This document shows positions 14,031-50,436 of a stretch of 64,000 nucleotides of DNA, piece by piece. Under the pieces are notes generated by a model. That model worked only from the letters and a program-made list of their open reading frames with translations, was not told the origin of the DNA and did no database searches. Made by a program: the position numbers and the translations under genes. Origin of the DNA: Cyanidioschyzon merolae (lineage: Eukaryota); assembly GCA_000091205.1 (NCBI GenBank), contig AP006489.2, one strand, 5' to 3'. Every line of letters starts with the position of its first letter. Position 1 is the first letter of the stretch.

Positions 14031-14456
14031 GAGTATGCAGCGTTCCTCATCTGGTTATCGGTGCTGCGTGCCGAGCTTCCGTATGACGGCGGCTGTAGCA
14101 ACATTCCAAAACCGAAATCCTTCCGTGGTGCATCAGTTGCAGTGATCCCGCCCAGTGTCGAACGCGCGGATCTGATTGTCCACCAAATATCTCCAAGTAC
14201 CATCCTCGCCGCCGTCATCCTCCTCGTCCACGTCCTTCTCGTCGTCGTCATCGAGAAACATTGTGGAGGTATCTACCAAACGACACAGCGGCAGAATCAC
14301 TGTACACACCTCTGAGAATCCCTTCGAGCAGTCTCGCTGACAGGCAGCGTCAACGCACCTGTCACGCGAGCTATACGTTTATGCACGCCATTTCAGCTGC
14401 CTTCATCCTGCCTGGTATGCTTCTCCGCCGATGCGGTGGCATTAGAGTCGAAGCTT

Positions 14457-22224: not shown

Positions 22225-22805
22225 TTGTATCGGGTACTGGAACACCAGTGCCTACAACGACTTGTGAAGAGAACTTGTTTCCTGTGTATATTCGGCGGTA
22301 CATAACACCAGTACCTACAACGACTTGTCAAGAGAAGTTGTTTCCTGTGTATATTCGGCGGTACATAACACCAGTACCTACAACGACTTGTCAAGGGAAC
22401 TTGTTTCCTGTGTATATTCGGCGGTACATACCACCAGTACCTACAACGACTTGTCAAGAGAACTTGTTTCCTGTGTATATTCGGCGGTACATACCACCAG
22501 TACCTACAACGACTTGTCAAGAGAACTTGTTTCCTGTGTATATTCGGCGGTACATAACACCAGTACCTACAACGACTTGTCAAGAGAACTTGTTTCCTGT
22601 GTATATTCGGCGGTACATAACACCAGTACCTACAACGACTTGTCAAGAGAACTTGTTTCCTGTGTATATTCGGCGGTACATAACACCAGTACCTACAACG
22701 ACTTGTCAAGAGAACTTGTTTCCTGTGTATATTCGGCGGTACATAACACCAGTACCTACAACGACTTGTCAAGAGAACTTGTTTCCTGTGTATATTCGGC
22801 GGTAC
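22225..22805. repeat. Minisatellite, 60-bp unit x ~9.7 (cggtacataacaccagtacctacaacgacttgtcaagagaacttgtttcctgtgtatattcgg), abutting the inner end of the right inverted-repeat arm
   Basis: The periodicity is obvious in the sequence. The track ORFs 22221..22880 (repeating PVPTTTCQENLFPVYIRRYIT), 22325..22834 and 22071..22856 are translations of the array. The unit's last ~20 bp (tgtgtatattcggcggtacat) is the terminal sequence of the IR arm. Confidence 0.92.
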
Positions 22806-29789: not shown

Positions 29790-31078
29790 TTAAAAGACTC
29801 GCTTCGGTTGTGGAAAGATGGATCCGCACACAAGTTCGCGCACGAAACCGCTGCCGCTCACTACCGTTACCGGCTGACTCAAGCGACACCACAGCGCGTA
29901 CGCTCGTGCAAAGCGCGCCGGCGATTCGAGCGAGCGTTACGCGCAGTCATCGAAGCGCAGCTGGCGCTGCCGGTGTCTGTCGATGATGATCACGGAGGTG
30001 CGCGCGCACCAGCGAGATCGTCGAATGCACGCCACGTTGCATCGTGTGTGTGCGCGCGCGATCTGAAGCAGCAGGCGTGCAACAGTGCCTTGAGTGTGCG
30101 TGTACGTGTGCGTGTGCGCCTGCTGCTGGCACGGTATGCTGGAACGGATGCGTTGGCGAGCGTGCCTTTGTTGTGGTACGCGTTCGCTGGAGCGAGTGCC
30201 CGCTATTCGGGAAGCACTGTGATGCTCGTGGCGGTATTTCCATGAGGTAGGTGTCGGGAGCGGATACGAGTCTAGCCGTACGATCAACTTGCAGAGCGTT
30301 GGGTACTGTCCAGTGCATCCTGGGAGCGGTACTGGGTGATGCGGAATCGAGGCCACCACCGATACGCGAGCGCCAGTATCTCGTTGGGCGGCACGCGGGC
30401 GTTGGTCGGTGTCAGCGCGCGGTTCATAGGGTGCAACTGGGCAGACGGGCGGGTGCGGCGGCGGTCCCTATGCGTTCGTATGTAGGCTATCGTTTGACTC
30501 CAGGTGGCTCTGTTTCGGACGGCGTTTGTCGGGGACTTCAGCGCACCTGCTCGTAATTTTCGCTGAAGATCGTCATGGGAACGACTTCGAGTGGGTACGT
30601 TCCGCTCGCAGAGAATGGGGGTTTTCTGAAACCCGACTGAGCACCTCACACTGCAACTGCGATTCTTGAGTTCCTGTTGATCTGGATGGTTTCCAGTTGG
30701 AAATCAATACGGGGGACTCTTGTTGCCAAATTGACAGTGGCGGCTGATAGACAAGACCTGCAGAGTGGATTCTACCGGGCCTTCGATTCCCGTTCGGGAT
30801 TCCGCGCTGCATGCGAATACCCGGAGGCGACGACGTGACCGCCGCCTGGTATGAGCCTGGTGTGACCCAGGCCATAAAGTCATCTGTTTGTGATGCCCAT
30901 GCAGCATGCGATTCAAGGCGCTGTCATGGCGCCCGCTGCCTACTACCGTCCCGAGTCGGATACGCACCAATCTGAGATCACTGGAGTGCAGTGGCTGCCT
31001 CCGCGATATTCACGCGTGTGCTTTACGAACCATCCTTTTCGGATGTGCGAGCGCACGATCGGCTGCACTGGAAAGCGA

Positions 31079-31328
31079 TATTGTGTAACCACCGCAAGGA
31101 AGCCGCCCTTGTTAAACGCAATGCGATGCTGAATACGACTGTCGATTTCGCGATCAAGCCAATATTGTGTAACCACCGCTAGGAAGCCGACCCTGTTAAA
31201 AGCGATACCACACAGAATATGACTGTCGATTTCGCGATCAGGCCAATATTGTGTAACCACCGCAAGGAAGCCGACCCTGTTAAAAGCGATACCACACAGA
31301 ATACGACTGTCGATTTCGCGATCATGCC
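31079..31328. repeat. Tandem repeat, 84-bp unit x 3 (atattgtgtaaccaccgcaaggaagccgaccctgttaaaagcgataccacacagaatacgactgtcgatttcgcgatca…)
   Basis: Unit starts at 31079, 31163 and 31247. Track ORF 30943..31449(-) shows the repeated peptide DREIDS(R/H)ILCGIAFNRVGFLAVVTQYW. Confidence 0.85.
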
Positions 31329-32492
31329 ATTCGTAGTGCCATGCTCGGACTCTAGTGTGTAGCACTGTACTGCGCAAGGATCGGGGTGATCTCTTCCATA
31401 TATCTACACATGACATCGTATGAAGCTGGTGCTTGTTCCGACGCACCACATCTACATGGATATATAAACAAGGACGGCGTCATGTTTTCCGAGGTCGAGT
31501 GCGCTCGGTGAAAGAGGAGAGCATGTTCCCTTCAGGTTCCACACTGATTGACATCTGTGTCTCCCACATGCATACGCCAGTATTTGAAAATCTAGAGAGC
31601 GCACCAGTATCGTGCCAGGATGGTGTGTGCCTCTGAAACGGCGAAAGCCGCGCAGTGCCATGCAGCTGGCAGTACCATCTGGACACTGCGGACACAGGTG
31701 GCCGCGCACCGTCTTTTCCCGAGAGCGCATCCCATGATGCGCCACGGACGCGGGAAATCGCAGGTCGTGTCACGGAAACAGCAGATTCCGTGACGCCGGC
31801 GATGAACAGCGCATGCGCGCATCACGTATCTAGGCCGCAGCGCGCGACGTGGTGCGCGGCAGATGTGTATGTATGTGTCATTATTTCCCTGAAGCAGGAC
31901 GCTGCACCCGCGATGCGCTTCTAACGACGCATCTGATTTTATTGAGACGATGCGGTAAACACGATATCGGTTAGCACTCGTGTGCCTGCACCGGACCTCT
32001 TGGACGGTGAGAATCTCGGGAACTGGTTATCCCGAAGAAATCGAAGCCAGCCGCGTCGACGAAGCGTTGCCGGAGGAGCTCGGGCGACATAGTCGTATTC
32101 GTCCTGTCACCGAAAATCACACGTATAACAGCTTGATAATCTAGAGCACGACACTGATTGGGTGTGTCGATGTGGCGTAAACGGTTGCTCAGCTCAGGCA
32201 CGTCGGGCCGATACTGCCGACCAAGACACCTGAGCGATCTGGTGTCCCGCGCAAGCTGGTGCCGGACGCACGCAACATTCGGAGAGAGTCGGCAGTTCCC
32301 TTTCGGTGCTGAGTTTGCGTCTGCGACCACTCGATTAGTATACGAAACGCACACCTGCCGTTTACAACCATTGTAGAGCTTGCCGTTCCGGACTTGTGCC
32401 CGAACCTTCATGTTTCCTGATGGCGCACTATCTATGCTGTAGTTCGCCTGCATTCAAAGAATTCAGCTTTCCATGGAGCCTCCTTTGCGTTT

Positions 32493-33068
32493 TCAGTATG
32501 CGCAAATGCTCCCTGTGTTCTGAATGTACACGATGATGCCAATCTCGTCCGTGCTCTCGCCGTTGATAGACCAGCGGTTGCCAACTATACGCCATGCAAT
32601 AGTTCCCACGAAGCAGTCTGCATTTATCTCCGCCACTGCTGCATCATCGACTTGGTAGAGATATCCATCGGAGTTGGCCTGAAACGGTTCATCGGTAACA
32701 GTAACATCATTGATAATGCAGCATTCACCGAAGCATAACGTGTTTCCCTCGAAGTAATCACCGTTAACCATGCGAACCGTGATGTACGACGGGCAAGATT
32801 CGCTGTTGACACTGTAGTCATTTTCGAGGTCACTGGTGTACCACTGAGCTTCATAGAGACCGTCCTCGCAACTGGAATAGAAATACGAGCCACTATCGCA
32901 CAGGTTACTTGGGCTGCAGGAGGAACAGTCCGTTTGAATACTGTTCTCTATCGTGCCGGTATCTGTATAGCACTCATAATAACAAGTCTGCCCCGAAACG
33001 GGTTCCTGCATAAAAGACAAGACAAACACGAGCGTCAAAAACACGAAAAGAGCACGCTTGCAAGACAT
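32493..33068 (-). CDS. Small secreted cysteine-rich protein, paralog A (signal peptide + ~165-aa mature region with ~12 Cys)
   Basis: MSCKRALFVFLTLVFVLSFMQEPVSG|QTC… is a classic n/h/c signal peptide. The mature part is Cys-rich and ends …GSICAY. It is the only convincing gene inside the duplicated unit. Confidence 0.6.
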   Translation of the reverse strand: MSCKRALFVFLTLVFVLSFMQEPVSGQTCYYECYTDTGTIENSIQTDCSSCSPSNLCDSGSYFYSSCEDGLYEAQWYTSDLENDYSVNSESCPSYITVRMVNGDYFEGNTLCFGECCIINDVTVTDEPFQANSDGYLYQVDDAAVAEINADCFVGTIAWRIVGNRWSINGESTDEIGIIVYIQNTGSICAY

Positions 33069-33132
33069 AAGGTTGGCGCTTTCGAGCAGAGTCTATAGCT
33101 TTTACTTCAACAACAAGCGACGCAGTTACGTA

Positions 33133-33217
33133 CTATGTGACTGTCACGCTGCGCGACACGCACACCGAGATGCAGCCGTGTCACGCTGCGCGACACGCAC
33201 ACCGAGATGCAGCCGCG
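33133..33217. repeat. 42-bp x 2 tandem motif (tgtcacgctgcgcgacacgcacaccgagatgcagccg) in the 5' flank of secreted-protein gene A; the same feature occurs at 40612..40696 upstream of gene B
   Basis: Direct duplication visible in the sequence; conserved between both segmental copies. Confidence 0.8.
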
Positions 33218-35688
33218 TCACGCCACCTGTGCATGGTGCACACGGATGCGCTCACAACGCCCCCAACGGATAGGAGATCTCCCAACGACGTGCGTTGTAT
33301 GAGAGCCGCCGCCGCCGCCGCCGAGCTTCACACGAGCGCATGACGTATCTGCGCGTCGTGTTCGCGCTTTGCGTATCTGGGCGCTGTCGTTGCGCTCGCG
33401 AGCGGCGGCGTCGTTTACTGGCGGGCAGCGCTGGTGTATTCGCGGTACGCGGTGCTGTATGTTGTACGCGAGCGCTGAGGAATCGGAAAGGTGGTATAAG
33501 TGTACCGAGTGGTCTGGGTGGCCATTGGGCACGCTCAGGGCGTCGTTGTTGACAGCAGGGATCCTGTTTCGCTGCTCGGTAGAGCTAAGAACGACTCAAA
33601 CAGAAGGAGTTCGCATAGCGACCGAGGGCGGAAACGGCAAACTTTGAACCTATTCTAGCTGCTATCGATAGCAGGCTTTGCGGACTTTCTCGGAGACTGT
33701 TTCCTTTTCCGCTCTTTTTTTTCTGCAAGTTTGACTGGGCTTGTTTCTCGTGTCTATCTTGCACTGTTGCTGTGAGCTGTTGAAGGATGTACACAACAGC
33801 GGTATAGCTCCGACCTCGCTGCCTCTGGTTGCTTTTCACGCTTCTCATATGCAGTATTTCGTTGCAACCTACGCTCCTGTTGCCTTTTTCATGAACTTTG
33901 GTGGCAGGAACGATGCGCCTTTTGCAGCGGTGTCACCTGGCAATGCTCGGATGTTGCAGCAGGTCTGGTGCACCTGCTGCAGCGCGGGCTCGCCCTGCAG
34001 CCCACGAAGGCTTGTCGCACCGCTCGGTACATGCCCGTGCGGGCCAGGGAAGGGTCGCGCGATGGTCTCCCCAGTTTCCACACCGGGTGCCGTATCCTAC
34101 GTTCACGGGCTACTGCATGGCGACTGTATTGGCAAGTAGGCCGTCGGCCGGAGAATCAAGCGGAGGCTGTTCCATTCTGTCGAAGATTTGCGGGACGAAA
34201 CTTCGTCTATGGTGAAACCAGCACCGGGAAGGAACCCCAGGCTGAAGCACAAATCGAGATATTTCGATCCGTATGCGCTCGCCTGGGGCAGTTCGGTGGA
34301 GCGTTTCCACAGGGAGCTGTGGTAGCCACGAGACGAACTCGTATCCAAGATCTTTTTTTTACGCGCAAACAGAAGAGACCCGAGTCTCCGGGAGCATATC
34401 CGTGCGAAATATGATGATGCTACTGTTGCGTGCCGTTTTGCAAACCGCCACAGAGAGACGCACACCTTTCGAACAGATAGAATTACTAGCCGTGACAGGT
34501 TCAATGAACTTTTATGTTTGAGCTTGTGGAGAAATCGAGAAAGGACGGCGCCCAGTTTATCCATGGTCATTGCAACAGAAGGCATTGTTGCGCCTTCGCA
34601 ATACCTTGGCCCAGGGAGTTTGGAAACATGAACCATGCGTGATATGCGCACGCTGCTTCGGAGGAAAGGAGACAAGCCGAGGCTCCTGCGTATCCACTGG
34701 ACCATGAAATAGAGTCTTTTGAAAGGCCTCGTATAAGAGCATCCCGAATCATGAAGAATCCGATGGTGTACCAAATTCTAGCGGCAAGGCGTTGAATAAA
34801 CCACTTCGAACATTCGACCCAGAATCCTAAAACTACGAATACGTCGGAACGTTCGTACTGGCGCACTTTGAGTCTCAAGTCTGCGGGTCAAAAAACAGTC
34901 CGAGAACCTCGAAGACCAGGAACAAAAGCGCGCAGTTATGTGGTTCTTTTCAGTCTGCCATGAGTCGAGGGCGAGCGACTGAGCGCGAACGCTCAAGGCA
35001 GTACCGCCCCAAAGTCGTATTCTTCCTCGCTATACGCGGAATCTCTGGGGCGTAGTGAGCCGAAAAAATACAGAAAAAACAAAACAAACTAGTTGCAAAA
35101 TATTGATTAAAGAACACCTATCTTATGGACCTACACACCACGGCCGCCTAAGAGGTTCCAATTTTCCTGGAGAAGCTCTGAAAGTGGGTTAACACGGGGT
35201 GCTTGGACGACGGCGATAGAAGACCACGACAGGAACCTTGACCGCAACGAACGGAGAGGCGGAGGCAGTAGCATCACAAAGTATTGACGAAAATGCTGAG
35301 CAGACATTCGCACCTCCCGAAACAACGCTGCAGGTGCGGGCACATATTCTGGATCCATCCTCGAACTCGGACTCAGGATTACCTCCTACCATGGGTACCT
35401 ACCTCGACTTTGGAAACAGTCTCGGCGGATACTTTGGAAGACGGCTGGCGGCATGTTCACGGTCGAAACTGGAGTAAGCGACTTGCCCGCGTATGTGTTT
35501 GGGGAGCGGATACGTAGCTGCTGAAAGGGTGTTTTGCAGACTGTTCCCAATGGTTGCGGGTAGCTTCACGCGTCCGGCAAGATAAAGTTTGCATTCGAAT
35601 CGACCAAGACTAATGTACTTCTGTTGCTAACTTCGCGCTGTGCCAAGCACTCAATGGACGACTGGAATGCAGGAAGCGCTGGTGGCGT

Positions 35689-38600
35689 GTGCGTTCACAC
35701 ACCCCGTGGAGCGTGCGTCTAAATCGACGACGTATCTCTGGAGCACCGCAGCGCCATTCCTATTTCCTTATGCGCTATGACTCGATAGGTTTCGCATCAT
35801 GGAATATTTGTGAGATAGCCCCGATACTAGACGACGAGAAGTCGAATTACCAGTACAGTAATGAGGAACTGATACAAATCGAGGACTCTACCTTAGCGAT
35901 AGAGACCCAACGAGATACGGAGAAGGAGGTACAGAGCCATCATGATCCAACCAGAAGCAAAATAACCAGAGAAAGTAGCTCAGGACAGAGCCCGAAGAAG
36001 AAGACCAGCAAGAGAAAACAAGAGAATAGAAAGAAGAACTCCGAAACGAGCCCATCACAAGTCATCCCCGGAAAGAACACCCCAGCCGGAACTCAAGAAA
36101 GCTGTCAAAAAACTCAGTCACCTACTCACAACGCGGTAGATCCGAAAAGCCGTGCATGCAAATCATTAGACCAACCGGGACGGCTGGCACCAGAACGTAA
36201 AAGTTGCAATCCGCAGTACCTGAAACGACGTACCAATACCCAGATTGATGAATGCCACCGACTCTATCAGATCGTCAACCGCACCGCCTTACGCGCCAAC
36301 GCCGGAGACAAGGAAGCGAAGGCAGTCCTAACGGCGCTACAGGCGCAACGTGAAGAAGCTATCAAAAGAAAGAAGAAACTTTCCAGAGAAGACAAACGAG
36401 AGGATCGAAGCCGCAAAATCGCCTCCCTGGCGAAATCTATGCTGGAGAGCACCACCGAAGATGAGACTTGGCGCTCCATTCGATCGAGACTGGAGCCACC
36501 AAAAAAGTGCTTGGGGCTCACACCAATCGTTGATAAGGAAGAGCTGAGGACGGAGGGTGCCTCAGTGAATGAGGCCTGGACAGACCACGGGACAGAGCTG
36601 CATGAAGACGCAACTGGGCACTGCCAAGACCCAATCTATCGGCACCAATATGCCGCAGAAGTACCGCGCATCGAACCGGTACTTGGAATGGAACGACCCA
36701 ATCTTCTGGCCTGAAATCGCTGAGACACTCTTAAGCTCATGCAACCGCAAAACACCTGGCATCGACGGTATCGCTGCCGAGTGGGTGAAACTGGCGACAC
36801 CAGAAGGCGAGACAACAGGGACACCATGGATACCAGATGAACCTGACACAAGCTTAGGCAAACGCTTTCTGGAGCTCATCCAACGCATGTTTGAAGAGGC
36901 ATACATCCCTGATGTATGGGGGACTGCCGAGGTCGTACCGGTCCTCAAAAAAGACTCCCACACAGACATGAACAGCTACCGGCCTATTCGCCTCATCCCG
37001 TCAATCATGAAGCTACTTTGCGCCATCCTCACGAACCGTATCCACAGCGGCCTCCAGGAGCGCAAGTTCTTCGCCCCAGAACAGGCTGGATTCCGGAGCC
37101 GCGAGGAGTGCATGAGCCATGCCCTGACCTTCATTGAAGTGGTGCAACGTCGCTTCACTAGCGACCAACAACCAACTTACGTATGCTTCATCGACTTCCA
37201 AAAGGCCTCGGACACGGTCCCGCACGAGGCTCTATTTCTGAAGATGGAACGTGCCGGAGTCTCCGAAAAGTGCTTAGCGTTCTTCCGTGCGCTCTATGTA
37301 GACTCATGGATGCGCATCCGACTGGGCGACGGCTCAAGAACCCCTTCGATAAGAATGCGCCGTGGACTGCGACAGGGCGATCCCGCATTCCCGCTCCTTT
37401 TCAACATCTTCATCAACGACCTGCTGAACAACTGCAGACAATACGTGCTTGAGGTGCCGTGGATAGACTGGGGAGATGCCCGATGAGGAGCCCTCATGTA
37501 GGAACCGCCTCGCAGGCCTTCTATTTGCGGACGATGTCGTGCTGTTGGTACCCGCCCCGGAAACGCTTGCGGGTAGCATGGAACAAGTCAGCGACTGGGC
37601 CGATCGCTGGGAGATAAGCATAGGAGCATCGAAGTGCGGCGTCATGGTCATTCATGGAGACTCGCAGAGCATTCGCAATCGCTCGTGGCGGTTGCAGAAT
37701 CAGGAAATTCCGATCGTGGAAAAATATCGCTACCTGGGGGGTCTGTCGCACATCGACGCTCGACGAAAAGGCACACGTCGACGAGATGATCGCCAAGATG
37801 CATAGACGTACAGCGATCGCACGCCCATTCTTATCCGACCCCTCTACCTGCATAGCAATCCGTACCAGCGCACTAAGGATGTGTATCATCCAGCCTGCGA
37901 CCTGGGGTGCTGAATGGTGCGGCATGAAGCACCCAAATGCCTCGCGTCTGCAGGCAGCCGCCAACAGGGCAATGCGACTCGTTGTTGTTGGGTGCTCAGT
38001 ACAGAGCAGAGCAACCACCGCGCTGGCACTCGGACTTGAACTCCAAATACCCTCGACAGAGGCGATAGCAGCAGGCTGCCGGGCATGTATACGGGCGAAG
38101 GGCTCCACTATGCGCACCTCTTTGAGTCGGATTTTCATGCAGACCCCAACGCACCGCAAGAACTCTTGGATGAAATCGACGCAGATTTGGCTGAAGCGCC
38201 TCTTGGGCGAAAACACGCTCCCCAATCTTTCCCCCAGGGATATAGAAGGCTCCCGCCGCCTCAAGCGAACGGTCCAAACACCAATATGGGATCGTAGACA
38301 CGGAACAAGTCGCGCCGGTAACGCCGGCTTTACTCTATACCGGAACTACACCCTAGCATACACATGCAAGTACTGGCGGGAGGCGCTGGAATTCCCGGGA
38401 CTTGCTCGAGGTACCCAGTGGCTCGCCAAAATGCGCGTTGGTGGCTTCTGGCTAGCAGCACCGGCTCTAAGCCGTATAGGAACACTGGAATCGCACTGGG
38501 AATCACACTGTCCCTGCTGTGGAAACGAGACCCCCGAGACGCTGACACATTTAGGCCTACAGTGGCCGCGCTGGAAACAGGAGCGCAGCGAGCTCCTTGA

Positions 38601-39298
38601 AGGACAGCAGCAGCTGGGCATCACCGTGATAGACGAAGGTCGGACACTCACTCTGAGTGTAGCACTGGCAATTGATGGTCCGCTAACCGAGCCTCAGCGC
38701 TCATTAGTGGCCAAAAAACTCACATGCTACCTTGTAGGTAAAAGGTCCAGCGAATCGGATGCGCATACGGGCGCAGTGCGCTTTCTGCGCCTACCTTCTG
38801 TGGTGGGTGTCAAGCACAAACCCGCATTGCCAACCAAGAACGCATTCCGTGCATGATCACGAGGAAGAGAGGCGGCTCCCAGAATTCATCCTAACAGCCA
38901 AGTTTCTCCAGCGTGTCGTGTAGCGAAGGCAGGCCTGCATCCGCAGACTGCCCGAGCGCAAACTGACGACGAGACCCGATTCTACGTCGGGTGAACCACG
39001 CCTCGAGCCGACGCCCTCTGAGGTATAGGAAAGCTGTTCTAGCTCTATGAACTATCTGCTCCAGCGGTTCAGGTGCCAAGGCGGATACGGAACGGCAGGC
39101 ACTCGGAACACACGATAGGACATATGAGGCGACAAGAATATCCGAGATGAAACATGGGTAATGTAATTTGAGAGTATGGTGTTGATGGACACCTCTCCTC
39201 GCACTGAAAAAAAAACACACAAAACAAGTAAGAAAAGAAAAATGCGCATAATCGGGGAACGCTGGCCTAAGAAAACGTTTTATCAATGAAAAAAAAAT
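35689..39298 (+). mobile_element. Non-LTR (LINE-like) retrotransposon, degenerate. It has a basic/coiled ORF1-like region (35689..36714), an RT-bearing ORF2 split by at least 2 frameshifts (36569..37486 / 37476..37805 / 37654..38856), and a 3' UTR ending in an A-rich tail (~39195..39298)
   Basis: RT motifs FIDFQKASDTVPHEALFLKMERAGV, MRRGLRQGDPAFPLLFNIFINDL and LLFADDVVLLVPAPE (FADD). The C-terminal motif CPCCGNETPETLTHLGL is the C..CG..ET.E..H zinc-knuckle-like block common to LINE ORF2 tails. The A-runs gaaaaaaaaacacacaaaacaag…caatgaaaaaaaaa end exactly where duplicate copy B begins. I recognise no APE endonuclease domain. The 5' boundary is uncertain and may lie 35.05-35.7 kb. Confidence 0.8.
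36569..38856 (+). pseudogene. LINE ORF2 (reverse transcriptase + C-terminal Cys/His motif) disrupted by frameshifts
   Basis: The RT domain continues across three different reading frames in the ORF track (305-aa, 109-aa and 400-aa pieces) with overlapping ends. Confidence 0.75.
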
Positions 39299-42200
39299 GC
39301 GCATCACGTATCTAGGCCGCAGCGCGCGATGTGGTGCGCGGCAGATGTGTATGTATGTGTCATTATTTCCCTGAAGCAGGACGCTGCACCCGCGATGCGC
39401 TTCTAACGACGCATCTGATTTTATTGAGACGATGCGGTAAACACGATATCGGTTAGCACTCGTGTGCCTGCACCGGACCTCTTGGACGGTGAGAATCTCG
39501 GGAACTGGTTATCCCGAAGAAATCGAAGCCAGCCGCGTCGACGAAGCGTTGCCGGATGAGCTCGGGCGACATAGTCGTATTCGTCCTGTCACCGAAAATC
39601 ACACGTATAACAGCTTGATAATCTAGAGCACGACACTGATTGGGTGTGTCGATGTGGCGTAAACGGTTGCTCAGCTCAGGCACGTCGGGCCGAGACTGCC
39701 GACCAAGACACCTGAGCGGTCTGGTGTCCCGCGCAAGCTGGTGCCGGACGCACGCAACATTCGGAGAGAGTCGGCAGTTCCCTTTCGGTGCTGAGTTTGC
39801 GTCAGCGACCACTCGATTAGTATACGAAACGCACACCTGCCGTTTACAACCATTGTAGAGCTTGCCGTTCCGGACTTGTGCCCGAACCTTCATGTTTCCT
39901 GATGGCGCACTATCTATGCTGTAGTTCGCCTGCATTCAAAGAACTCAGCTTTCCATGGAGCCTCCCTTGCGTTTTCAGTATGCGCAAATGCTTCCCGTGT
40001 GCGGAATGTACACGATGACGCCAAATGCGTCCGTGCTCTCGCCGTTGATAGACCAGTTTCTGGCATTTGCAGCCCATGCAATAGTTCCCACGAAGCAGTC
40101 TGCATTTATCTTCGCCACACCTGCATAATCGACTTTGTACAGATGCCCATCGGATTTGGCCCGATACGGTTCATACTTAACAGCAACATCATTGGCACTG
40201 CAGCATTCGTCGAAGCATATCGTGTTGGCCTCGAGGTAATGATAGTTAACCAAGCGAAACGTAATGTAGGACGGGCAAGGAACGCTCTTGACACTGTAGT
40301 CTACATCCAGAAAACTGGTGTACCACTGAGCGTCAAAAGTGCCGTCCTTGCAATTGGAAAAGAAGCTCAAGTCTCTGCAGAGGTGACTTGGACTGCAGGA
40401 GGAACAGTCCGTATGAATAGTTTTCTCAATCGTGCGGTTTTCTGTATAGCACAGATAGGAACAAGTCTGCCCCGAAACGGGTTCCTGCATAAAAGACAAG
40501 ACAAACACGAGCGTCAAAAACACGAAAAGAGCACGCTTGCAAGACATAAGGTTGGCGCTTTCGAGCAGAGCCTATAGCTTTTACTTCAACAACAAGCGAC
40601 GCAGTTACGTACTATGTGACTGTCACGCTGCGCGACACGCACACCGAGATGCAGCCGTGTCACGCTGCGCGACACGCACACCGAGATGCAGCCGTGTCAC
40701 GCCACCTGTGCATGGTGCACACGGATGCGCTCACAACGCCCCCAACGGATAGGAGATCTCCCAACGACGTGCGTTGTATGAGAGCCGCCGCCGCCGCCGA
40801 GCTTCACACGAGCGCATGACGTATCTGCGCGTCGTGTTCGCGCTTTGCGTATCTGGGCGCTGTCGTTGCGCTCGCGAGCGGCGGCGTCGTTTACTGGCGG
40901 GCAGCGTTGCTGTATTCGCGGTACGCGGTGCTGTATGTTGTACGCGAGCGCTGAGGAATCGGAAAGGTGGTATAAGTGTACCGAGTGGTCTGGGTGGCCA
41001 TTGGGCACGCTCAGGGCGTCGTTGTTGACAGCAGGGATCCTGTTTCGCTGCTCGGTAGAGCCAAGAACGACTCAAACAGAAGGAGTTCGCATAGCGACCG
41101 AGGGCGGAAACGGCAAACTTTGAACCTGTTCTCGCTGCTATCGATAGCAGGCTTTGCGGACTTTCTCGGAGACTGTTTCCTTTTCCGCTCTTTTTTTCTG
41201 CAAGTTTGACTGGGCTTGTTTCTCGTGTCTATCTTGCACTGTTGCTGTGAGCTGTTGAAGGATGTACTCAACAGCGGTATAGCTCCGACCTCGCTGCCTC
41301 TGGTTGCTTTTCACGCTTCTCATATGCAGTATTTCGTTGCAACCTACGCTCCTGTTGCCTTTTTCATGAACTTTGGTGGCAGGAACGATGCGCCTTTTGC
41401 AGCGGTGTCACCTGGCAATGCTCGGATGTTGCAGCAGGTCTGGTGCACCTGCTGCAGCGCGGGCTCGCCCTGCAGCCCACGAAGGCTTGTCGCACCGCTC
41501 GGTACATGCCCGTGCGGGCCAGGGAAGGGTCGCGCGATGGTCTCCCCAGTTTCCACACCGGGTGCCGTATCCTACGTTCACGGGCTACTGCATGGCGACT
41601 GTATTGGCAAGTAGGCCGTCGGCCGGAGAATCAAGCGGAGGCTGTTCCATTCTGTCGAAGATTTGCGGGACGAAACTTCGTCTATGGTGAAACCAGCACC
41701 GGGAAGGAACCCCAGGCTGAAGCACAAATCGAGATATTTCGATCCGTATGCGCTCGCCTGGGGCAGTTCGGTGGAGCGTTTCCACAGGGAGCTGTGGTAG
41801 CCACGAGACGAACTCGTATCCAAGATCTTTTTTTTACGCGCAAACAGAAGAGACCCGAGTCTCCGGGAGCATATCCGTGCGAAATATGATGATGCTACTG
41901 TTGCGTGCCGTTTTGCAAACCGCCACAGAGAGACGCACACCTTTCGAACAGATAGAATTACTAGCCGTGACAGGTTCAATGAACTTTTATGTTTGAGCTT
42001 GTGGAGAAATCGAGAAAGGACGGCGCCCAGTTTATCCATGGTCATTGCAACAGAAGGCATTGTTGCGCCTTCGCAATACCTTGGCCCAGGGAGTTTGGAA
42101 ACATGAACCATGCGTGATATGCGCACGCTGCTTCGGAGGAAAGGAGACAAGCCGAGGCTCCTGCGTATCCACTGGACCATGAAATAGAGTCTTTTGAAAG

Positions 42201-42525
42201 GCCTCGTATAAGAGCATCCCGAATCATGAAGAATCCGATGGTGTACCAAATTCTAGCGGCAAGGCGTTGAATAAACCACTTCGAACATTCGACCCAGAAT
42301 CCTAAAACTACGAATACGTCGGAACGTTCGTACTGGCGGACTTTTAGTCTCAAGTCTGCAGGTCAAAAAACAGTCCGAGAACCTCGAAGACCAGGAACAA
42401 AAGCGCGCAGTTATGTGGTTCTTTTCAGTCTGCCATGAGTCGAGGGCGAGCGACTGAGCGCGCGCGCTCATAGCAGTACCCCCCAGCACCATATCCTTCC
42501 TTGCTATACGCGGCATCTTTGGGGC
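39299..42525. repeat. Copy B of the ~3.2-kb direct segmental duplication
   Basis: See copy A. It begins at gcgcatcacgtatctaggccgcag immediately after the LINE A-tail. Similarity to copy A fades at ~42525. Confidence 0.9.
39975..40547 (-). CDS. Small secreted cysteine-rich protein, paralog B. The signal peptide is identical to paralog A, while the mature region has diverged (~60% aa identity) on a conserved Cys scaffold
   Basis: MSCKRALFVFLTLVFVLSFMQEPVSGQTCSYLCYTEN…GSICAY. Cys positions are conserved relative to paralog A and intervening residues are largely replaced. Confidence 0.6.
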   Translation of the reverse strand: MSCKRALFVFLTLVFVLSFMQEPVSGQTCSYLCYTENRTIEKTIHTDCSSCSPSHLCRDLSFFSNCKDGTFDAQWYTSFLDVDYSVKSVPCPSYITFRLVNYHYLEANTICFDECCSANDVAVKYEPYRAKSDGHLYKVDYAGVAKINADCFVGTIAWAANARNWSINGESTDAFGVIVYIPHTGSICAY

Positions 42526-43870
42526 GTGTCTGCGCAAACAATCATGTAGACGAGCGCCCCGCCAGGACACTCGTTCAGGGCGCTGCCTCTACCACCGTGC
42601 ACATCCTGTGCGAGTCCGACAAACGCACGCCGTCTCACTACGGAGCAAACCTAACCACCCACACACTCATTCGCTCTGGTATCCACGCACCGATTGTCGA
42701 TAGCATGGTCATCGAGCGCCCCGCGAACATGCGTCAGGACGCCCGGACATCCTTGCACGGAGCCGGTAACCTTCTTGCCAGACTCGCGTCTCACCAGTGC
42801 TCGGAATCGCTCCAGAGAAACACCAGAGGCAACATAACCGTAATGTGTGCCAGATTATGCGATGAAGCTGCTGTCGATACCAGTATTCTGGCAGCGGTGA
42901 TTCTTGCGCTGATTTCATACGACGGACGTGCTCCCATTGCCACGTTCGCCGTGTCATGATGTTATCAGTTACCGAGCAGGTAGTTGCGCACTCATTCAAC
43001 TCAGCTAGCGTCCCGATGCCCTGCAAAACACGAGTCACGTTGCTTATCGTCTGTCGATCGAGCAAGTTGGAGACACGAGTGAGGCTCGTCCTATGCGCAT
43101 GGATGCGGTATTCGAAGCAAGCTGCACCTTTTGATGTTTTACGCGATGCATCATGGTGTGCTTTGTTCTCACGGCGACACAGGAATCAAGTTGACCAACA
43201 GGCGTTGCCATCGCAAGGCTCAGCAAGACGCAAACATATGGTCGCTCTCGCAAGTACAGCTCGCGTGCGGGTTGCTGTCTTCGTCTAGCGATACTTGTGC
43301 CGGGTAAGCGGGAGTGTGCCAGTCGTGCATGTGCAACGACAGCAAAGAAAGCGTTGAAGATCAGCGCGACACGTTGGCTGTTGATACCAACGCTCTCGCG
43401 TGCCCGTTGTTCGACGTGCACCGCCTAAGCAAGGCGTACCTTGGGCACACACACGTAGCTCGACACCGCGCACATTGAAGGACCAGTTTGTCGCCAGCTC
43501 GAGCCCAGTACCTAGAACGCGCTTCTTGTGCAACGTATCACAGAGCTAGTTCTCCGGCAGCGCAACGTGCTAGTAGCCAGTCACGTGCAAAATTCCCAGC
43601 TACAAAACTGGCTCCGCGCGTTGACGACAAGCTCCAAGCGCCCAGGCAGAGTCGCTTTGGCTCCCAGCTTGGCGCCCGTTGCTCCAGCACCGCACTTGAC
43701 CGAACAAGGTCTTCACGCGCTACGCTCACTTCTGTGTACCGGTCACGATTGCCGCGCGTACTTGGTGACTCCAGGTACAGCGTTTCTCGTGCAACGCCCA
43801 CAACTTGCGGCAAGTGAAGCTTCGTTATGAGACAGTCGCGAACGACAACCGTCAAATGATGCACCAATAA

Positions 43871-43990
43871 CAGCACAAGCAGTAGCACAAGCAGCAGCAC
43901 AAGCAGCAGCACAAGCAGCAGCACAAGCAGCAGCACAAGCAGCAGCACGAGCAGCAGCACAAGCAGCAGCACAAGCAGCAGCACAAGCAG
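43871..43990. repeat. 12-bp microsatellite (agcacaagcagc)n x ~10, ~100 bp upstream of the TRAF-type zinc-finger gene
   Basis: Direct read of the sequence. The track ORFs 43538..44020 (LLLVLLLV…) and 43743..44138 (AACAAAC…) are translations of this array. Confidence 0.9.
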
Positions 43991-44094
43991 AGATATTGCT
44001 GGTGACACAAGAAGCAGCACCGGCGATTGTCCCCGAGATTGCTAGCAGCGTATTGCGTGGCAACCTGGCGCTCGCCTTCGGTGTCGGGTGAGCT

Positions 44095-45715: not shown

Positions 45716-47338
45716 GTGTTCGCGCTATCTAGTGCACAATCAGTTCCGTTTCACGCCATGGCTCGCAGGCACCTTTTCGCTGGCAGGTTTGCGGGATTCG
45801 CACCCGTCACTGGTGCGCTCTGGTTACGTCCAGGGCAGCGGGCGAGCTCACCGGTGACAGGCGCCTCGGACTCAGTATCGCGCCTTGGACAACGGCATCC
45901 GGTTTCTAGGCGTTGGCGGCAACAGCGAACCGGGCTGTTCAACGTGCGACTGTCCACGCGTCGGCTCCGGGTCTTTATCTCCACGGGGGAGGTCTCTGGT
46001 GATATGCACGGTGCTGCGCTAGCCCGGAGCCTCAAGCAGCAAGCGATGCATCGAGGTGGCTCGAGACAGCAGCAGCAGCTGCTGCTGCTGCGCGGAGTAG
46101 GCGGCCCAGCGATGCGACAAGAAGGTGTCGAGCTCTACGCCGACACGCTTCGCATCTCCTCCATTGGCCTCTATGAGGCACTGCGCTTTGTGGTGCCTGC
46201 TTATCTCGCATACGAAAAAGCAAAAAAGGAGCTGCTCGAGGATCCTCCGGATGTCGCCGTTCTGATCGATTACACTGGACCGAATATGGCGCTGGCCACC
46301 TGGTTTCGCCAAAACCTGCCTGGTGTGCCGGTAATCTCGTACATCGGACCTCAGCAGTGGATCTGGGAAGCGAATGGGAAGCCAGCGCACCGTCTATTGG
46401 ATTATTTTCCGATTCTGGCGACATGCTGCCGTTGTCTGGTTGCGATTTTCCCGCTAGAGGCAGCGTTCTACTGCCGAAAGCTCGAGGAGCTCGGGGCGCT
46501 TCCAAATCCACCGCCGCAAATTGTCTACGTAGGACATCCGATTCTGGATCTGGTTGAGCCCGTGACGCGAGACGCCGCTCGGGCAATGCTTCCATGGACA
46601 AGCTCGGAGCACGTGTGTGTGGCGTTGATGGTCGCCTCACGCCTACAGGAAATCGGTGCTTTGCTTCCGGCGACAACGCGCGCAGCCCTGGCTATGGAAA
46701 AGTCGCTAGAGGCGAAGGACCCCCCGAAGCGCATTCGGTTTATCATTCCAACGGCTAGACCTGAGTTTTCGGATCAAATTCGTCGTGTCTTGTTGGATCA
46801 GGGCGTGCCGTCGTCACGTATTGCGTCATGGGATCCGAACCTGCGCGAGATGCATCCCGAGACGCTCTTTTTCCTGGTACCACGAGATTATGCTCGCCTG
46901 GTGCTTGCAGCAGCCGATCTTGCAATCTGCAAGTCGGGCACGGTAAATTTGGAGGCGGCGGTGCTCGGTGTACCTCAAATCGTGCTGTATCGTTTATCGT
47001 GGACCTCGGCCTTTGTCATCCGTCACCTATTCCAGATGCAACTACCGTACGTGTCAGCAGTGAATGTAGTCTGTCTGGATCAGGCGATTGTGCCGGAGCT
47101 GCTGCAGGAGCACGTCACACCGGAGCGAATCCACGAAGAGGCCATGGCGTTGCTAGAGAATCGCAACGGCTGTGCTGACCGGATGCGTCACTCGTACCAG
47201 AGCCAGGTGCTGCCGCGCCTGCGTCTAGCCGAGGACTGCCCTGAGCCGGTCGTCGAGCGAACTGCGGCCGGCAGAGCTGCCGCCGTTGTTTGGCGCTACC
47301 TAGACCAGGCGCAAGAAAGCCGCACACTGGTCACCTGA
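45716..47338 (+). CDS. lpxB: Lipid-A-disaccharide synthase (LpxB, GT19), preceded by an ~80-aa Arg/Ser/Ala-rich presequence (probable organellar transit peptide)
   Basis: LRVFISTGEVSGDMHGAALARSLK is the LpxB N-terminal signature. Also VLIDYTGPNMALA, DLAICKSGTVNLEAAVLGVPQIVLYR and YVSAVNVVCLDQAIVPELLQ. 540-aa ORF. Confidence 0.8.
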   Translation: MFALSSAQSVPFHAMARRHLFAGRFAGFAPVTGALWLRPGQRASSPVTGASDSVSRLGQRHPVSRRWRQQRTGLFNVRLSTRRLRVFISTGEVSGDMHGAALARSLKQQAMHRGGSRQQQQLLLLRGVGGPAMRQEGVELYADTLRISSIGLYEALRFVVPAYLAYEKAKKELLEDPPDVAVLIDYTGPNMALATWFRQNLPGVPVISYIGPQQWIWEANGKPAHRLLDYFPILATCCRCLVAIFPLEAAFYCRKLEELGALPNPPPQIVYVGHPILDLVEPVTRDAARAMLPWTSSEHVCVALMVASRLQEIGALLPATTRAALAMEKSLEAKDPPKRIRFIIPTARPEFSDQIRRVLLDQGVPSSRIASWDPNLREMHPETLFFLVPRDYARLVLAAADLAICKSGTVNLEAAVLGVPQIVLYRLSWTSAFVIRHLFQMQLPYVSAVNVVCLDQAIVPELLQEHVTPERIHEEAMALLENRNGCADRMRHSYQSQVLPRLRLAEDCPEPVVERTAAGRAAAVVWRYLDQAQESRTLVT

Positions 47339-48474: not shown

Positions 48475-50436
48475 TCAAACGCCTGATTCGAATGGTGTAC
48501 GATCCTCGCGTTCTGTCTCCGCGTCAAGGTGCTGGCGACGTCGATCCTGCCGTTTTGTCCATCGATGGAAGGCTAGTGCTCCTGTCGAGATGCTCATCGT
48601 ACTCATGGTCGCCAATGTCGGAAACCGTCGGGGCGACGACAGCGTAAAAGATACGCCGTACATGAGCAGTTCAGCGAGTGAGCACAGGGCGGCTTCGACG
48701 GCGGAGACCTCGCCGACAGCGCTTGCATCGACCATGGTTTGCATGATTTCGGTTTCGGCGGTGTCCCAGCACCAGAGGCCCCAGCGAGAGAGTGTCACGA
48801 AGACGAGAACACCAATGAGCAAGGGCGGTTGCTGATACGTTATCTGCGCGACTGAGTTCTGCGCGGCGCTGGGGAGCGGCACCTCAGGAACGCGGACGAG
48901 CCACAAAAGCAGCTGCGCTGGGAGCAAGCACGCAAGCTGGCACAGCACGCCAACGCGGCCTACCTGCAGCACAGACCAGTGGAGACGGGTGACAAGGATC
49001 TCGAAACTGAAGGTTGCAAGGATACCGATGATTGCGGATGCAGCACGGAAGATGCCAATGGTGCTGCCATTCACGCCGCAATACGTCAGGAAACCGAACA
49101 GGAGGCCGCCAGGCGAAAGCACCGTGAAATAGAGACTAACATGTGCAAGGGATGGTACAAAAGTTTCCTGTTCGTAATATAGTCGCCAGGATGAGAAGAG
49201 CTCTCGCAGGTGTTGATAAACCGTTCGAGCCGCAACCGCGACTCTAGTGGTTGTGCTTGGGATTGGCTCCTCACGAGTCGATGCTGTGCCCTGTACTTTG
49301 CGCCCGGTTCTCCGCGCTGCATCCTGCTGCTCGTTTGAGGCGTTCACGTTCTCGCCTCGGGCGCAGATTTGGCTCGCCCTGAACAGCGCAACGAGCTGAA
49401 TAGCTAGCAGAAACGCCCCGAAACGCGCCACAAGTACAGAGCCTTGCACTTCACCGCGCGAGGAGAGGAGCCAACCCACCAGCAGCGGCATTCCGATATC
49501 GATCGTCATGGTGATACGGCGCATACGCGCGTTTGCGATCGCCAGCTGCTCCTCTGTTTTGGAGCCATCTATTGCACCACTTTGGTACTGCTGGGCATGC
49601 ACAGTGAGCGGTAACCACCGTTTCCAGAGCGAAATTTCCAGTGCGAATTCGCTGAGTGCCGCAATTGTACCGAAAACACAGAACCATAAAGTACCCTCAG
49701 GAATCGCGGTTGCCTGATCGTTTGGCCGGTACCGCGCAAGCAGAGGCATCCAAATCGCACAGAGCGATGTGCTGACTCCATACAATACGGAGGCAACGGC
49801 CGCTGTTCGGAAGCGCCAGCCCCAATCCAGCATTTTTCCAACCGTTGGGCCGAGTAGAAAGCACGCTCCGCGGCTGCTCAGCATGTAGATTGCCGCCGGC
49901 ACGAACGAGCCATCCGTCCGGTTCAGCGCTCGCTGTGAGACTATCATTAAGAATATTGGAACAACGAAGGTGAACGCCCTCTGGACGCCGCAGATGAGGG
50001 CATATGCAGTGTACAGCGGCAGGAACGCCAAAATGGACGGCTTCGCTTGTCGGCTGTGCTGCGTCGCTGGCTCACCGGTGCGGTTGGCGTCGTTCGCGGG
50101 GGTACTTTCGACTTCCGAACTTGCGTGAGTCCCTCCCGAGTCACTTTCAGGGGGTCTGCGACTCTCTGAAGGTGGCAGGAATTCCGTGTCCGCAGAGACA
50201 GTCGCAGACCTGCTCTCCGCAACGTGCTGTGCCTTCTGAGTGACCGCCTGCTGGAAGCCCGACGTTGCGACCTTTTCGGGCTGCGCAAGCACTACGCAGG
50301 TTTCAGCGGTCGCTTCAGCACACATATCAGAGCACACAGTGCCTCTCGTCAGGGTCAAAGTGACGGCTCCTGGTAAACAGTCTTGCCTCGCGTCGCCTCT
50401 GGGACAAGTCGACCGACCGTGCCTCAATTTGAGCAA
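48475..50436 (-). CDS. Polytopic membrane transporter, ferroportin/IREG-like (assignment tentative); the N-terminal ~130 aa are probably not all coding
   Basis: About 10-12 hydrophobic segments. LLGPTVGKMLDWGWRF and the surrounding helices resemble the ferroportin N-terminal half (…IGDWVDK…). 653-aa ORF. Confidence 0.5.
   Translation of the reverse strand: MLKLRHGRSTCPRGDARQDCLPGAVTLTLTRGTVCSDMCAEATAETCVVLAQPEKVATSGFQQAVTQKAQHVAESRSATVSADTEFLPPSESRRPPESDSGGTHASSEVESTPANDANRTGEPATQHSRQAKPSILAFLPLYTAYALICGVQRAFTFVVPIFLMIVSQRALNRTDGSFVPAAIYMLSSRGACFLLGPTVGKMLDWGWRFRTAAVASVLYGVSTSLCAIWMPLLARYRPNDQATAIPEGTLWFCVFGTIAALSEFALEISLWKRWLPLTVHAQQYQSGAIDGSKTEEQLAIANARMRRITMTIDIGMPLLVGWLLSSRGEVQGSVLVARFGAFLLAIQLVALFRASQICARGENVNASNEQQDAARRTGRKVQGTASTREEPIPSTTTRVAVAARTVYQHLRELFSSWRLYYEQETFVPSLAHVSLYFTVLSPGGLLFGFLTYCGVNGSTIGIFRAASAIIGILATFSFEILVTRLHWSVLQVGRVGVLCQLACLLPAQLLLWLVRVPEVPLPSAAQNSVAQITYQQPPLLIGVLVFVTLSRWGLWCWDTAETEIMQTMVDASAVGEVSAVEAALCSLAELLMYGVSFTLSSPRRFPTLATMSTMSISTGALAFHRWTKRQDRRRQHLDAETEREDRTPFESGV

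Follow-up and report, generated by a model that had tools for sequence, protein, structure and literature searches.

Chromosome 7 of Cyanidioschyzon merolae 10D carries two direct copies of a 3.2-kb segment, here called X, which are 96% identical to each other. The sole sequence separating copy A from copy B is one non-LTR retrotransposon (LINE) on the plus strand (Table 1; positions refer to the window, that is, the whole stretch of 64,000 nucleotides that was analyzed). Self-BLAST aligns 31817-35053 with 39299-42527 as one direct repeat pair at 95.98% identity (E=0), with 122 mismatches and 4 gap openings over 3237 columns, and a separate repeat search agrees, which confirms the earlier note in placing the LINE exactly between two 3.2-kb direct repeats. 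Since the homology extends over a (GC)3/(GC)2 indel at the very start of the alignment to 31814 and 39298 (TGCGCGCAT vs. TGCGCAT), the poly-A tail of the LINE occupies 39289-39297. The start of copy B at 39298/39299 differs by no more than one base from the boundary drawn in that note. At the other end, the homology between the copies stops at 35053/42527. The poly-A thus abuts the first base of copy B at 39297|39298, and the 5' end of the LINE abuts the last base of copy A at 35053|35054, where a CGT microhomology is possible and homology to other members of the LINE family is found from 35059 onwards.

The left edge of copy A runs into unique upstream flank both in the reference and in four strain contigs (L002, L003, L006, and L007), while contig L001 spans copy B and its downstream flank up to LpxB and FPN1. 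The A/LINE junction is spanned by the independent environmental contigs L012, L013, L023, and L026 (98-99.6% identical), the first two of which also span the LINE/B junction. Given these contigs, the A-LINE-B arrangement is not an assembly artifact.

Each copy of X holds a gene for a secreted Cys-rich protein for which Pfam has no family. The mature part of paralog A has 12 conserved Cys, and the signal peptides of both paralogs are identical. The exact sequence of paralog A is present on at least 13 environmental contigs and was not found in NCBI sources.

Table 1. Positions of the duplicated segment, its genes, and the retrotransposon sequences in the window.
Feature	Position	Strand	Remarks
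Copy A, upstream copy of X	31814-35053		Last base abuts LINE 5' terminus
Paralog A, orphan secreted Cys-rich protein	32493-33068	-	191 aa; predicted 26-aa signal peptide
Right-edge block of copy A	34985-35053		About 19% diverged from copy B (13/69 sites)
LINE, degenerate but full-length	35054-39297	+	RVT_1; 4.24-kb spacer
A-rich 5' leader of LINE (AGTGAGCCGAAAAAATACAGAAAAAACAAAACAAAC)	35054-35089	+	Common to independent insertions with unrelated flanks
N-terminal ORF remnant of LINE	35689-36714	+	GFASWNI at 35788, AIETQ, then K/E-rich linker
Reverse-transcriptase domain of LINE	36947-37757	+	Frameshift near 37470-37500
CCHC zinc-knuckle motif (HCPCCGNETPETLTHL), LINE C-terminus	38509-38556	+	Counterpart in P0024 matches zf-RVT
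LINE poly-A tail, 9 A	39289-39297	+	Next base is first base of copy B
Copy B, downstream copy of X	39298-42527		Right edge runs into unique downstream flank
Paralog B, secreted Cys-rich protein	39975-40547	-	190 aa; 70% aa identity to A
3' TSD of truncated copy (ACTCGCCGTCATCC)	52447-52460	-	Partner at 52743-52756, 12/14 matches
Second LINE-family copy, 5'-truncated	52461-52742	-	Last ~290 bp and poly-A
5' TSD of truncated copy (ACTCGCCGGTATCC)	52743-52756	-	Pairs with 52447-52460

The retrotransposon and its termini

Over 35059-39296, the LINE is 83-87% identical to independent copies of its family (L016, L017, L018, and L021-L053). In an alignment with the full-length relative P0024 (1263 aa), it covers residues 416-1135; mapped onto the LINE, P0024 places the start of ORF2 near 35089-35108. 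The LINE shares 36-40% amino acid identity with APE+RT elements of 1200-1263 aa. The RVT_1 match on the plus strand is split by a frameshift (36569-37486, E=1.4e-18; 37476-37805, E=1.3e-5); the element is degenerate, as had been noticed before. The remnant of the N-terminal ORF retains only the first endonuclease motifs (ASWNI and AIETQ), as do L017 and L018. An intact homolog of this ORF, P0060, has no Pfam match to an APE-type endonuclease at E<=0.1; the Pfam endonuclease domain is present in P0024 and P0022. Judged from these sequences, the family is LINE-derived, and its endonuclease looks internally deleted. In its extent the window LINE is as complete as any family member, and L016 and the members of group h are 5'-truncated at other points.

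The 3' terminus of the element, '...ATGAAAAAAA(A)', is common to the window LINE, the copy at 52.4 kb, L022, L030, L040, L046, and L052. The copy at 52.4 kb, on the opposite strand, and copies in other genomes end alike ('...CGTTTT.T.CATGAAAAAAAA'). Being 73.6% identical to 39001-39296, with the shared ending ATGAAAAAAAA, the 52.4-kb copy independently defines the 3' terminus of the family. By eye, a T follows the poly-A in five of seven family copies, the window LINE included.

The 5' terminus bears on the A-rich tract at the end of copy A, which the earlier note had read as a degenerate tail belonging to that copy (35045-35080). The homology between the copies stops short of it, at 35053, and the tract itself (~35062-35089) lies outside copy A and within the LINE. 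The same A-rich leader is present in at least five insertions that are independent of each other and have unrelated upstream flanks (groups c, d, e, g, and b). BLAST homology to group c reaches 35059, five nucleotides from the end of copy A, and in other independent insertions the family homology starts at 35063, 35067, 35074, or 35078/79. The tract thus belongs to the LINE as its 5' leader, which leaves copy A without a poly-A tail. Since A/B homology ends at 35053 and family homology begins at 35059, both breakpoints coincide with the termini of a complete element, and the retroelement-linked duplication of the effector-like gene that had been suggested is strengthened.

Templated insertions are known at the duplication junctions of replication-based rearrangements. 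A DNA template switch of the FoSTeS/MMBIR type might in this way have made the duplication, with another genomic LINE serving as the templated junction insertion and no retrotransposition taking part, and the possible CGT microhomology at the A/LINE junction would fit. However, the insert extends exactly from the 5' terminus of the family to its poly-A end, with no foreign flank on either side, which is the signature of an RNA or cDNA intermediate and unexpected from an arbitrary DNA template switch; this origin appears quite unlikely.

The copy at 52.4 kb serves as a positive control for ordinary insertion of this LINE family, since it is flanked by a target-site duplication (TSD) of 14 bp that includes, in the positions expected for it, an exact 8-mer match (shuffle P=0.03). 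A clear TSD was not evident in five other family copies, and no short TSD was found flanking the window LINE. With most of the other copies showing no clear TSD, its absence here discriminates poorly between explanations. For five further members of the family, the flanks on both sides were available, and long flanking repeats were found at none of them, so the 3.2-kb duplication is a one-off event.

The earlier note had proposed an orphan or 5'-truncated 3' transduction. At this locus, transcription of the LINE would then have read through into X, with polyadenylation near 42527, and an X-only copy would have been reinserted just upstream as copy A. As in 3' transduction by L1, the LINE lies directly upstream of a sequence with a second copy nearby; its orientation is right and an A-rich tract follows copy A. 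Nevertheless, that tract is the leader of the LINE, and copy A has no tail and is not dispersed, but lies directly against the 5' end of this very LINE. No TSD of 6 nt or more surrounds copy A and the tract either, as 31777-31822 and 35050-35140 share no word of 6 nt or more. Two coincidences would be needed in addition, namely a truncation exactly at the poly-A/X boundary and an insertion no more than 5 nt away from the source LINE's 5' terminus. AATAAA and ATTAAA are absent from 42400-42527, although this point is weak. With copy A lacking both tail and TSD, 3' transduction is very improbable.

Relatives, gene conversion, and age of the duplication

The gap between the genes for Mpv17 and the TRAF zinc finger protein (ZnF) measures 14.3 kb in the window, compared with 4.5 kb in a syntenic relative known from two independent samples and assemblies (L020 and L054) and 2.6 kb in another, Cyanidiococcus (L019). 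In L020/L054, the gap contains exactly one homolog of the secreted protein (E=2e-36 to A and 4e-31 to B, with 62/194 identities to each) and no reverse transcriptase. In Cyanidiococcus it contains neither. The state before the event would accordingly be a single copy without the element, as judged from distant outgroups rather than from a near-identical empty allele: the outgroup homolog, with 32% amino acid identity, is too diverged for breakpoint alignment, and a U-X-D allele (U and D being the sequences on either side of X) was not found at high identity, as all close strains already carry A-LINE-B.

Within X, the copies share 99-100% identity in the signal peptide, the UTRs, and the flanks, and the mature peptide differs at 30% of its amino acids with all Cys conserved. 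Allele swapping is seen between copies A and B. The best explanation is an ongoing gene conversion that has homogenized the copies of X, sparing the mature-peptide coding block and the ~70 bp that end X on the right. In the mature block, dS (0.25) is as high as dN (0.22; omega about 0.9), and the divergence is therefore explained by conversion sparing this block or being selected against in it; accelerated substitution is not required. Conotoxins show a similar pattern, in which tandem paralogs evolve in concert and keep their signal and flanks conserved around a mature-peptide block that is hypervariable. The likeness lies in the near-identical signal and flanks, the diverged mature peptide, and the retained Cys, whereas the C. 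merolae locus differs in having only two paralogs and a dS as high as dN.

The right-edge block is copy-specific in all strains, and we regard it as sequence untouched by conversion, in which the true age of the duplication is preserved. At unconverted sites, the copies differ by K=0.217 (right edge) and 0.211 (mature CDS), that is, 0.105-0.108 per lineage. The LINE differs from its family consensus, an imperfect one built from copies in other genomes, by K=0.103 over 1655 sites. On the basis of 69 edge sites and a coding block that is possibly under selection, the age of the LINE matches that of the duplication.

These results also bear on a conventional order of events, in which unequal sister-chromatid exchange or replication slippage first gave X|X and the LINE later inserted exactly at the junction. 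Tandem duplications are common, and insertions of this family often lack a recognizable TSD, so the junction sequence alone is compatible with a blunt insertion. Against this order, the insertion would have to be nucleotide-exact, with no base lost from either copy. In the 16.5-Mb genome of C. merolae, class I elements number only 26 (PMC1955436), which makes an independent insertion within a few bp of an existing junction very improbable; as a rough estimate, the chance is about 1e-5 per junction. As the LINE is of the same age as the duplication, both events would, in addition, have had to take place at almost the same time. Moreover, X-X without the LINE is seen in no relative examined: those lacking the LINE have one copy or none, and the homology of copy A does not continue beyond the A-rich tract, so an earlier tandem duplication gains no support from either of the findings that the earlier note had named as favoring it. 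This order of events is unlikely.

A probable origin in a single retrotransposition event

We propose that the tandem duplication arose through one event of non-LTR retrotransposition, with a probability of roughly 0.7. Among the secondary alternatives raised before, a LINE-associated duplication comes nearest to this reading, whereas the insertion of a LINE into a tandem duplicate is disfavored. The ancestral order would have been Mpv17 - U - X - D - TRAF-ZnF - LpxB, with one X and no LINE. A full-length LINE RNA would have been reverse-transcribed from a 3'-OH at the U|X boundary, and priming at this position is proposed to explain why the poly-A abuts the first base of copy B. The deleted look of the family's endonuclease speaks against this origin, but the first nick could be due to trans-mobilization or to endonuclease-independent priming at a pre-existing lesion. 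The 5'-leader end of the cDNA would then have been connected with a DNA end at the X|D boundary, 3.2 kb further downstream, possibly via the CGT microhomology, which would explain why the leader abuts the last base of copy A.

Two routes could lead to this second join, and either would give U-X-LINE(pA)-X-D. In the first, both breaks would lie on one duplex and produce a 3.2-kb 'giant target-site duplication'. In the other, more plausible route, the second end would belong to the sister chromatid or to a replication fork, in line with the proposal for L1-mediated tandem duplications in human tumors. A short TSD would not be expected if the target that was duplicated is the 3.2-kb segment, although its absence is weak evidence. 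After insertion, the LINE would have decayed and the copies of X would have been homogenized by gene conversion.

Among the closest known systems are human ones. For a direct tandem duplication that has a single L1 at its junction, a model of sister-chromatid bridging has been described (Rodriguez-Martin et al. 2020, PMC7058536, Fig. 7), and small tandem duplications occur at L1 insertion sites (Mendez-Dorantes et al. 2024, PMC11702581). In these cases as at the C. merolae locus, two direct copies of the flank meet at one LINE that carries a poly-A. Its poly-A side corresponds to the primary integration site, its 5' side is connected with a second DNA end lying downstream, and an ordinary short TSD is missing. 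The human cases, on the other hand, are somatic or experimental, involve mostly truncated L1, and range from 64 kb to 22.6 Mb or are 'small' and local. The C. merolae case belongs to a red alga and is evolutionarily fixed and old (K about 0.2); its element is full-length with a degenerate family endonuclease, and a whole gene has been duplicated and has since diverged.

In rotifers, work by Gladyshev and Arkhipova from 2009 (cited in PMC2861651 and PMC5035012) describes 'exceptionally long' TSDs for the LINE R9, which reportedly measure about 126 bp. There too, target DNA is directly duplicated on both sides of one element, as staggered breaks would give. In contrast, the 3.2 kb is ~25 times longer, such a duplication is not regular in its LINE family, and the insertion is not site-specific; for the 3.2-kb duplication, rearrangement is a more fitting term than TSD.

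LINE-mediated tandem duplication has been documented in human tumors and in cell models over-expressing L1, where the products are somatic. At the C. merolae locus, the same outcome is apparently fixed in a natural lineage, with base-exact junctions, a single-copy outgroup, and matching ages. If the single-event origin is true, this mechanism can create heritable new genes. With 26 retroelements and very few paralogs, each such event is conspicuous in this genome. A more specific scenario, which we consider possible but doubtful, is that a LINE with a crippled endonuclease, acting at a replication-associated or broken end, gave a heritable 3.2-kb giant TSD and a new gene copy in one step, the copies being kept apart only in the mature-peptide block while conversion erases their other differences. 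If so, this would constitute a route of gene duplication in one of the most paralog- and transposon-poor genomes of free-living eukaryotes, and the divergence of the mature-peptide block would suggest that diversity is selected for where the surface of a wall-less extremophile alga engages in extracellular interactions. The locus offers a compact natural case in which conversion homogenizes a duplicate pair and the mature block of a secreted peptide stays diverged.

Anatomy of the duplication and termini of the retroelement

Self-BLAST of the window returns one long direct repeat pair (95.98% identity, 122 mismatches, four gap openings), the upstream copy A and the downstream copy B of a 3.2-kb segment, X, lying between the unique flanks U (upstream) and D (downstream). 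The homology starts at 31814/39298, reached via a (GC)3/(GC)2 indel at the left edge, and ends sharply at 35053/42527; when the global alignment is extended by 150 nt of flank it does not resume, and copy A shows no homology past the A-rich tract that follows it. The 4.24-kb spacer carries a frameshift-split RVT_1 domain on the + strand and matches residues 416-1135 of P0024, a full-length APE+RT relative of 1263 aa, in three successive frames. This degenerate non-LTR retrotransposon, the LINE, includes an RT ORF identical to BAM79701.1 ('retroelement', Cyanidioschyzon merolae 10D). Environmental contigs of close strains (98-99.8% identity) contain independently assembled A/LINE (L012, L013, L023, L026) and LINE/B (L012, L013) junctions. 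The LINE sandwiched between 3.2-kb direct repeats, as described in an earlier note, is thus confirmed by the self-BLAST, by the RVT_1 domain of the spacer, and by contigs across both junctions.

The poly-A tail of the LINE occupies 39289-39297 and is directly followed by base 1 of copy B, within one base of the adjacency previously placed at 39298|39299. A second, 5'-truncated family copy in the window (73.6% identical) terminates in the same '...CGTTTT.T.CATGAAAAAAAA', a 3' terminus also found in family copies of other genomes. To survey the 5' end, the stitched ORF2 was used as query in a protein search, and an invariant 22-mer of the 5' region was sought in one metagenome scan. More than 30 family loci were recovered, in at least seven groups whose upstream flanks are unrelated (designated a to h, the window being a). 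Homology to the window starts at 35059 (group c), 35063 (c2), 35067/35074 (d), 35078 (b, g), 35079 (e), 35085 (f), and 35095 (h). An A-rich leader precedes the common 'ACAAAACAAACTAGT...' in groups a, c, d, and e, and in b as a diverged form. Since it recurs in groups with unrelated flanks, the A-rich tract at 35062-35089 is the LINE's own 5' leader; its earlier reading as the tail of copy A was not borne out. On these alignments the window LINE is as complete as any other family copy. A boundary motif, 'CGTNGTG..GGAAAAA', is common to the window and group c, and CGT, the final 3 nt of copy A, is suggestive of microhomology with the LINE 5' end.

In the three copies sampled (window 35689-36330, L017, and L018), only ASWNI and AIETQ, the first endonuclease motifs, are kept before a K/E-rich linker, and no Pfam endonuclease was found in P0060, an intact homologue of the N-terminal ORF. 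The family endonuclease thus appears to be internally deleted. Separately, a LINE derivative of ~1.2 kb, in which the 5' ~650 bp are joined to the 3' ~560 bp (window equivalents 35063-35729 and 38729-39296), is seen in L022, L030, L032, L040, L045, and L047 in several distinct flanking contexts, and looks like an amplified non-autonomous, SINE-like form.

Ancestral state and age of the duplication

Syntenic regions were fetched using LpxB as an anchor. These were L019 (Cyanidiococcus yangmingshanensis VWRR01000017.1, LpxB 71% aa identity) and L020, a 104-kb contig of an environmental relative (LpxB 65% aa identity). The gene order AAA_28, Mpv17(-), TRAF-type ZnF(+), LpxB(+), FPN1(-), Pro_dh is conserved in the window and both relatives. 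Between Mpv17 and ZnF the window has a gap of 14,306 bp, against 4,532 bp for L020 and 2,557 bp for L019. The L020 locus contains a single homologue of the secreted protein encoded in X, in the same orientation (6044-6640; 198 aa; E=2e-36 vs A, E=4e-31 vs B, 62/194 identities to each) and no RT, an arrangement repeated in L054, an 85-kb contig from an independent sample. The L019 locus (5124-7679) has neither a homologue nor an RT, reflecting either loss of the gene there or its origin or arrival after the L019 split. The ancestral state is therefore single-copy and LINE-free, and the A/B split postdates the divergence of the L020 lineage. The comparison of orthologous loci called for earlier thus yields one copy or none, and no LINE, in relatives; two copies without the LINE, which would have spoken for a conventional duplication, were seen in none of L019, L020, and L054. 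In C. merolae the FPN1-to-Pro_dh interval (50027-54474) is ~2 kb longer than in L019 (14541-16998) and L020 (13957-16457), and harbours the truncated LINE copy, flanked by a 14-bp target-site duplication (TSD).

The A/B mismatches are very unevenly distributed: none in 33800-34800, ~18% over 32500-33000, which corresponds exactly to the mature-peptide codons (the signal peptide being identical), 13/69 differing sites in the last 70 bp at the right edge, and ~0.4-1% elsewhere. The mature-peptide and right-edge blocks are copy-specific in strain contigs; the few other differences swap sides, strains' copy A having reference copy-B alleles at 32212, 32237, 32484, and 34864-34885. The uneven mismatches and allele swaps point to an old duplication (K ~0.21-0.22) with ongoing gene conversion outside the two blocks. 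For the mature part, dS=0.25 and dN=0.22 (omega ~0.9), with all 12 Cys kept. Positive selection alone was rejected as an explanation for the divergent block, dS being as high as dN, as was a third-paralogue donor, since a search among 5.8 billion proteins returned only two clusters, A-type and B-type. In L004 and L005 the LINE 3' tail adjoins a copy whose mature-peptide block is A-type, which may reflect an assembly crossover through 680 near-identical bp or conversion of copy B by copy A in some strains; these contigs were not used as evidence of a different arrangement.

Against a family consensus built without it, the window LINE shows K=0.103 over 1655 sites, and K(A,B)/2 at the unconverted blocks is 0.105-0.108; as far as the small number of sites and the imperfect consensus allow, insertion and duplication are thus of the same age. 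The least decayed family copies, in groups c and d, differ from consensus by ~1.2-1.4%. A tandem duplication later invaded by the LINE is unlikely: the element would have had to hit the junction independently, with single-base precision and simultaneously with the duplication, although the genome is reported to contain only 26 class I elements, all non-LTR-like, and ~0.7% transposable elements overall (Nozaki et al. 2007, PMC1955436).

A LINE-bridged tandem duplication as the probable mechanism

The link between the duplication of the effector-like gene and a retroelement holds. The mechanism preferred in the earlier note, orphan 3' transduction, in which LINE read-through of X would have been reinserted upstream as copy A, predicts a poly-A tail of copy A's own and TSDs around copy A plus tail. 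These hallmarks fail: the A-rich tail belongs to the LINE, and no common word of at least 6 nt exists between 31777-31822 and 35050-35140. Neither AATAAA nor ATTAAA was found ahead of the end of copy B, a point of little weight. Transduction would further require truncation precisely at the poly-A/X boundary and a landing site no more than 5 nt from the 5' terminus of the source LINE itself, and is considered highly improbable. The truncated copy, serving as positive control, has a 14-bp TSD (12/14 matches) directly at both junctions; five of five other family copies have no clear TSD, so the absence of a short one around A-LINE-B is given little weight, and this feature was downgraded as a discriminator between models.

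Most likely, the locus arose by LINE-bridged tandem duplication rather than by 3' transduction, a single event to which a probability of roughly 70% is assigned. Target-primed reverse transcription would have used a first-strand primer at U|X and a second DNA end at X|D, giving U-X-LINE(pA)-X-D. This could occur through two breaks on one duplex with a 3.2-kb stagger, or through joining of the cDNA to broken DNA of the sister chromatid or of a replication fork, the two routes giving the same product. Because the sampled copies keep only ASWNI and AIETQ and P0060 has no Pfam endonuclease, it is plausible that priming occurred at a lesion already present or that the element was mobilised in trans. 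DNA-level template switching, slightly less probable than a duplication preceding the insertion, leaves unexplained the exact span of the insert, from the family 5' terminus to the poly-A end. At five other family loci, no kb-scale flanking repeats were found.

A single L1 at a direct tandem duplication junction has been reported, with a sister-chromatid/fork route drawn (Rodriguez-Martin et al. 2020, PMC7058536, Fig. 7), as have a 64-kb tandem duplication and small ones located where L1 had inserted (Mendez-Dorantes et al. 2024, PMC11702581). Those cases come from human somatic contexts, whereas the C. merolae locus would add a naturally fixed one.

The duplicated protein and other features of the window

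The product of each copy, 190 or 191 aa long, has a signal peptide and a conserved Cys framework and matches no Pfam family. Both proteins are called on many environmental contigs; their exact sequences are not in NCBI sources, including strain 10D, where the genes may be unannotated or annotated with another start. Beyond the A-type and B-type clusters, exhaustive profile searching of 1.84 billion representatives yielded only the L020-type orthologue and one distant homologue from a different genomic context, a result that likewise spoke against a third-paralogue donor. By sequence the protein is essentially without relatives. Its AlphaFold model is unusable (pLDDT 38), and 'effector-like' describes its form only. 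Rfam and tRNA scans of 28-46 kb gave no matches.

Coordinates of features in the window
Feature	Position	Strand	Remark
Copy A of X	31817-35053		self-BLAST limits
Copy B of X	39299-42527		self-BLAST limits
LINE	35054-39297	+	between A and B
LINE ORF2 start	~35089-35108		extrapolated from P0024
RT ORF	36569-37486		
CCHC motif	38509-38556		in LINE
Secreted protein A	32493-33068	-	
Secreted protein B	39975-40547	-	
LpxB	45716-47338	+	
Truncated family copy	52461-52742	-	
TSD of truncated copy	52743-52756; 52447-52460		ACTCGCCGGTATCC; ACTCGCCGTCATCC; adjoins both junctions
Inverted repeat pair	9108-10406; 22789-24087		1299 bp, 98.9% identity, 12.4 kb between
Tandem array	381-698		~147-bp units
Tandem array	12866-13329		116-bp units x4
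Tandem array	13856-14034		90-bp units x2
Tandem array	22241-22807		63-bp units x9
Tandem array	31078-31329		84-bp units x3, just upstream of copy A
12-nt repeat	43837-44028		GCACAAGCAGCA x ~12; just upstream of and overlapping long ORF with TRAF-type ZnF gene region

The stretch 59665-62182 (and 62193-62826) recurs in relatives as a dispersed repeat at 71-81% identity, with several copies on one contig (L032, for example). The nucleotides at its end, '...CTCACCGAGCGCGAT(G/T)C', lie directly against the LINE 5' ends of groups b and f; in L030 and L032 they adjoin, in inverted orientation, the LINE poly-A tails. The repeat ends at 62182 in the window, and a diverged sequence resembling the LINE leader, 'AGAAAAAAAAGAACAGAAACTAAACACTAACTAGTAACGAAAG', follows at 62183-62225. 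The repeat may be a target favoured by the LINE, a partner element, or one portion of a longer composite element.
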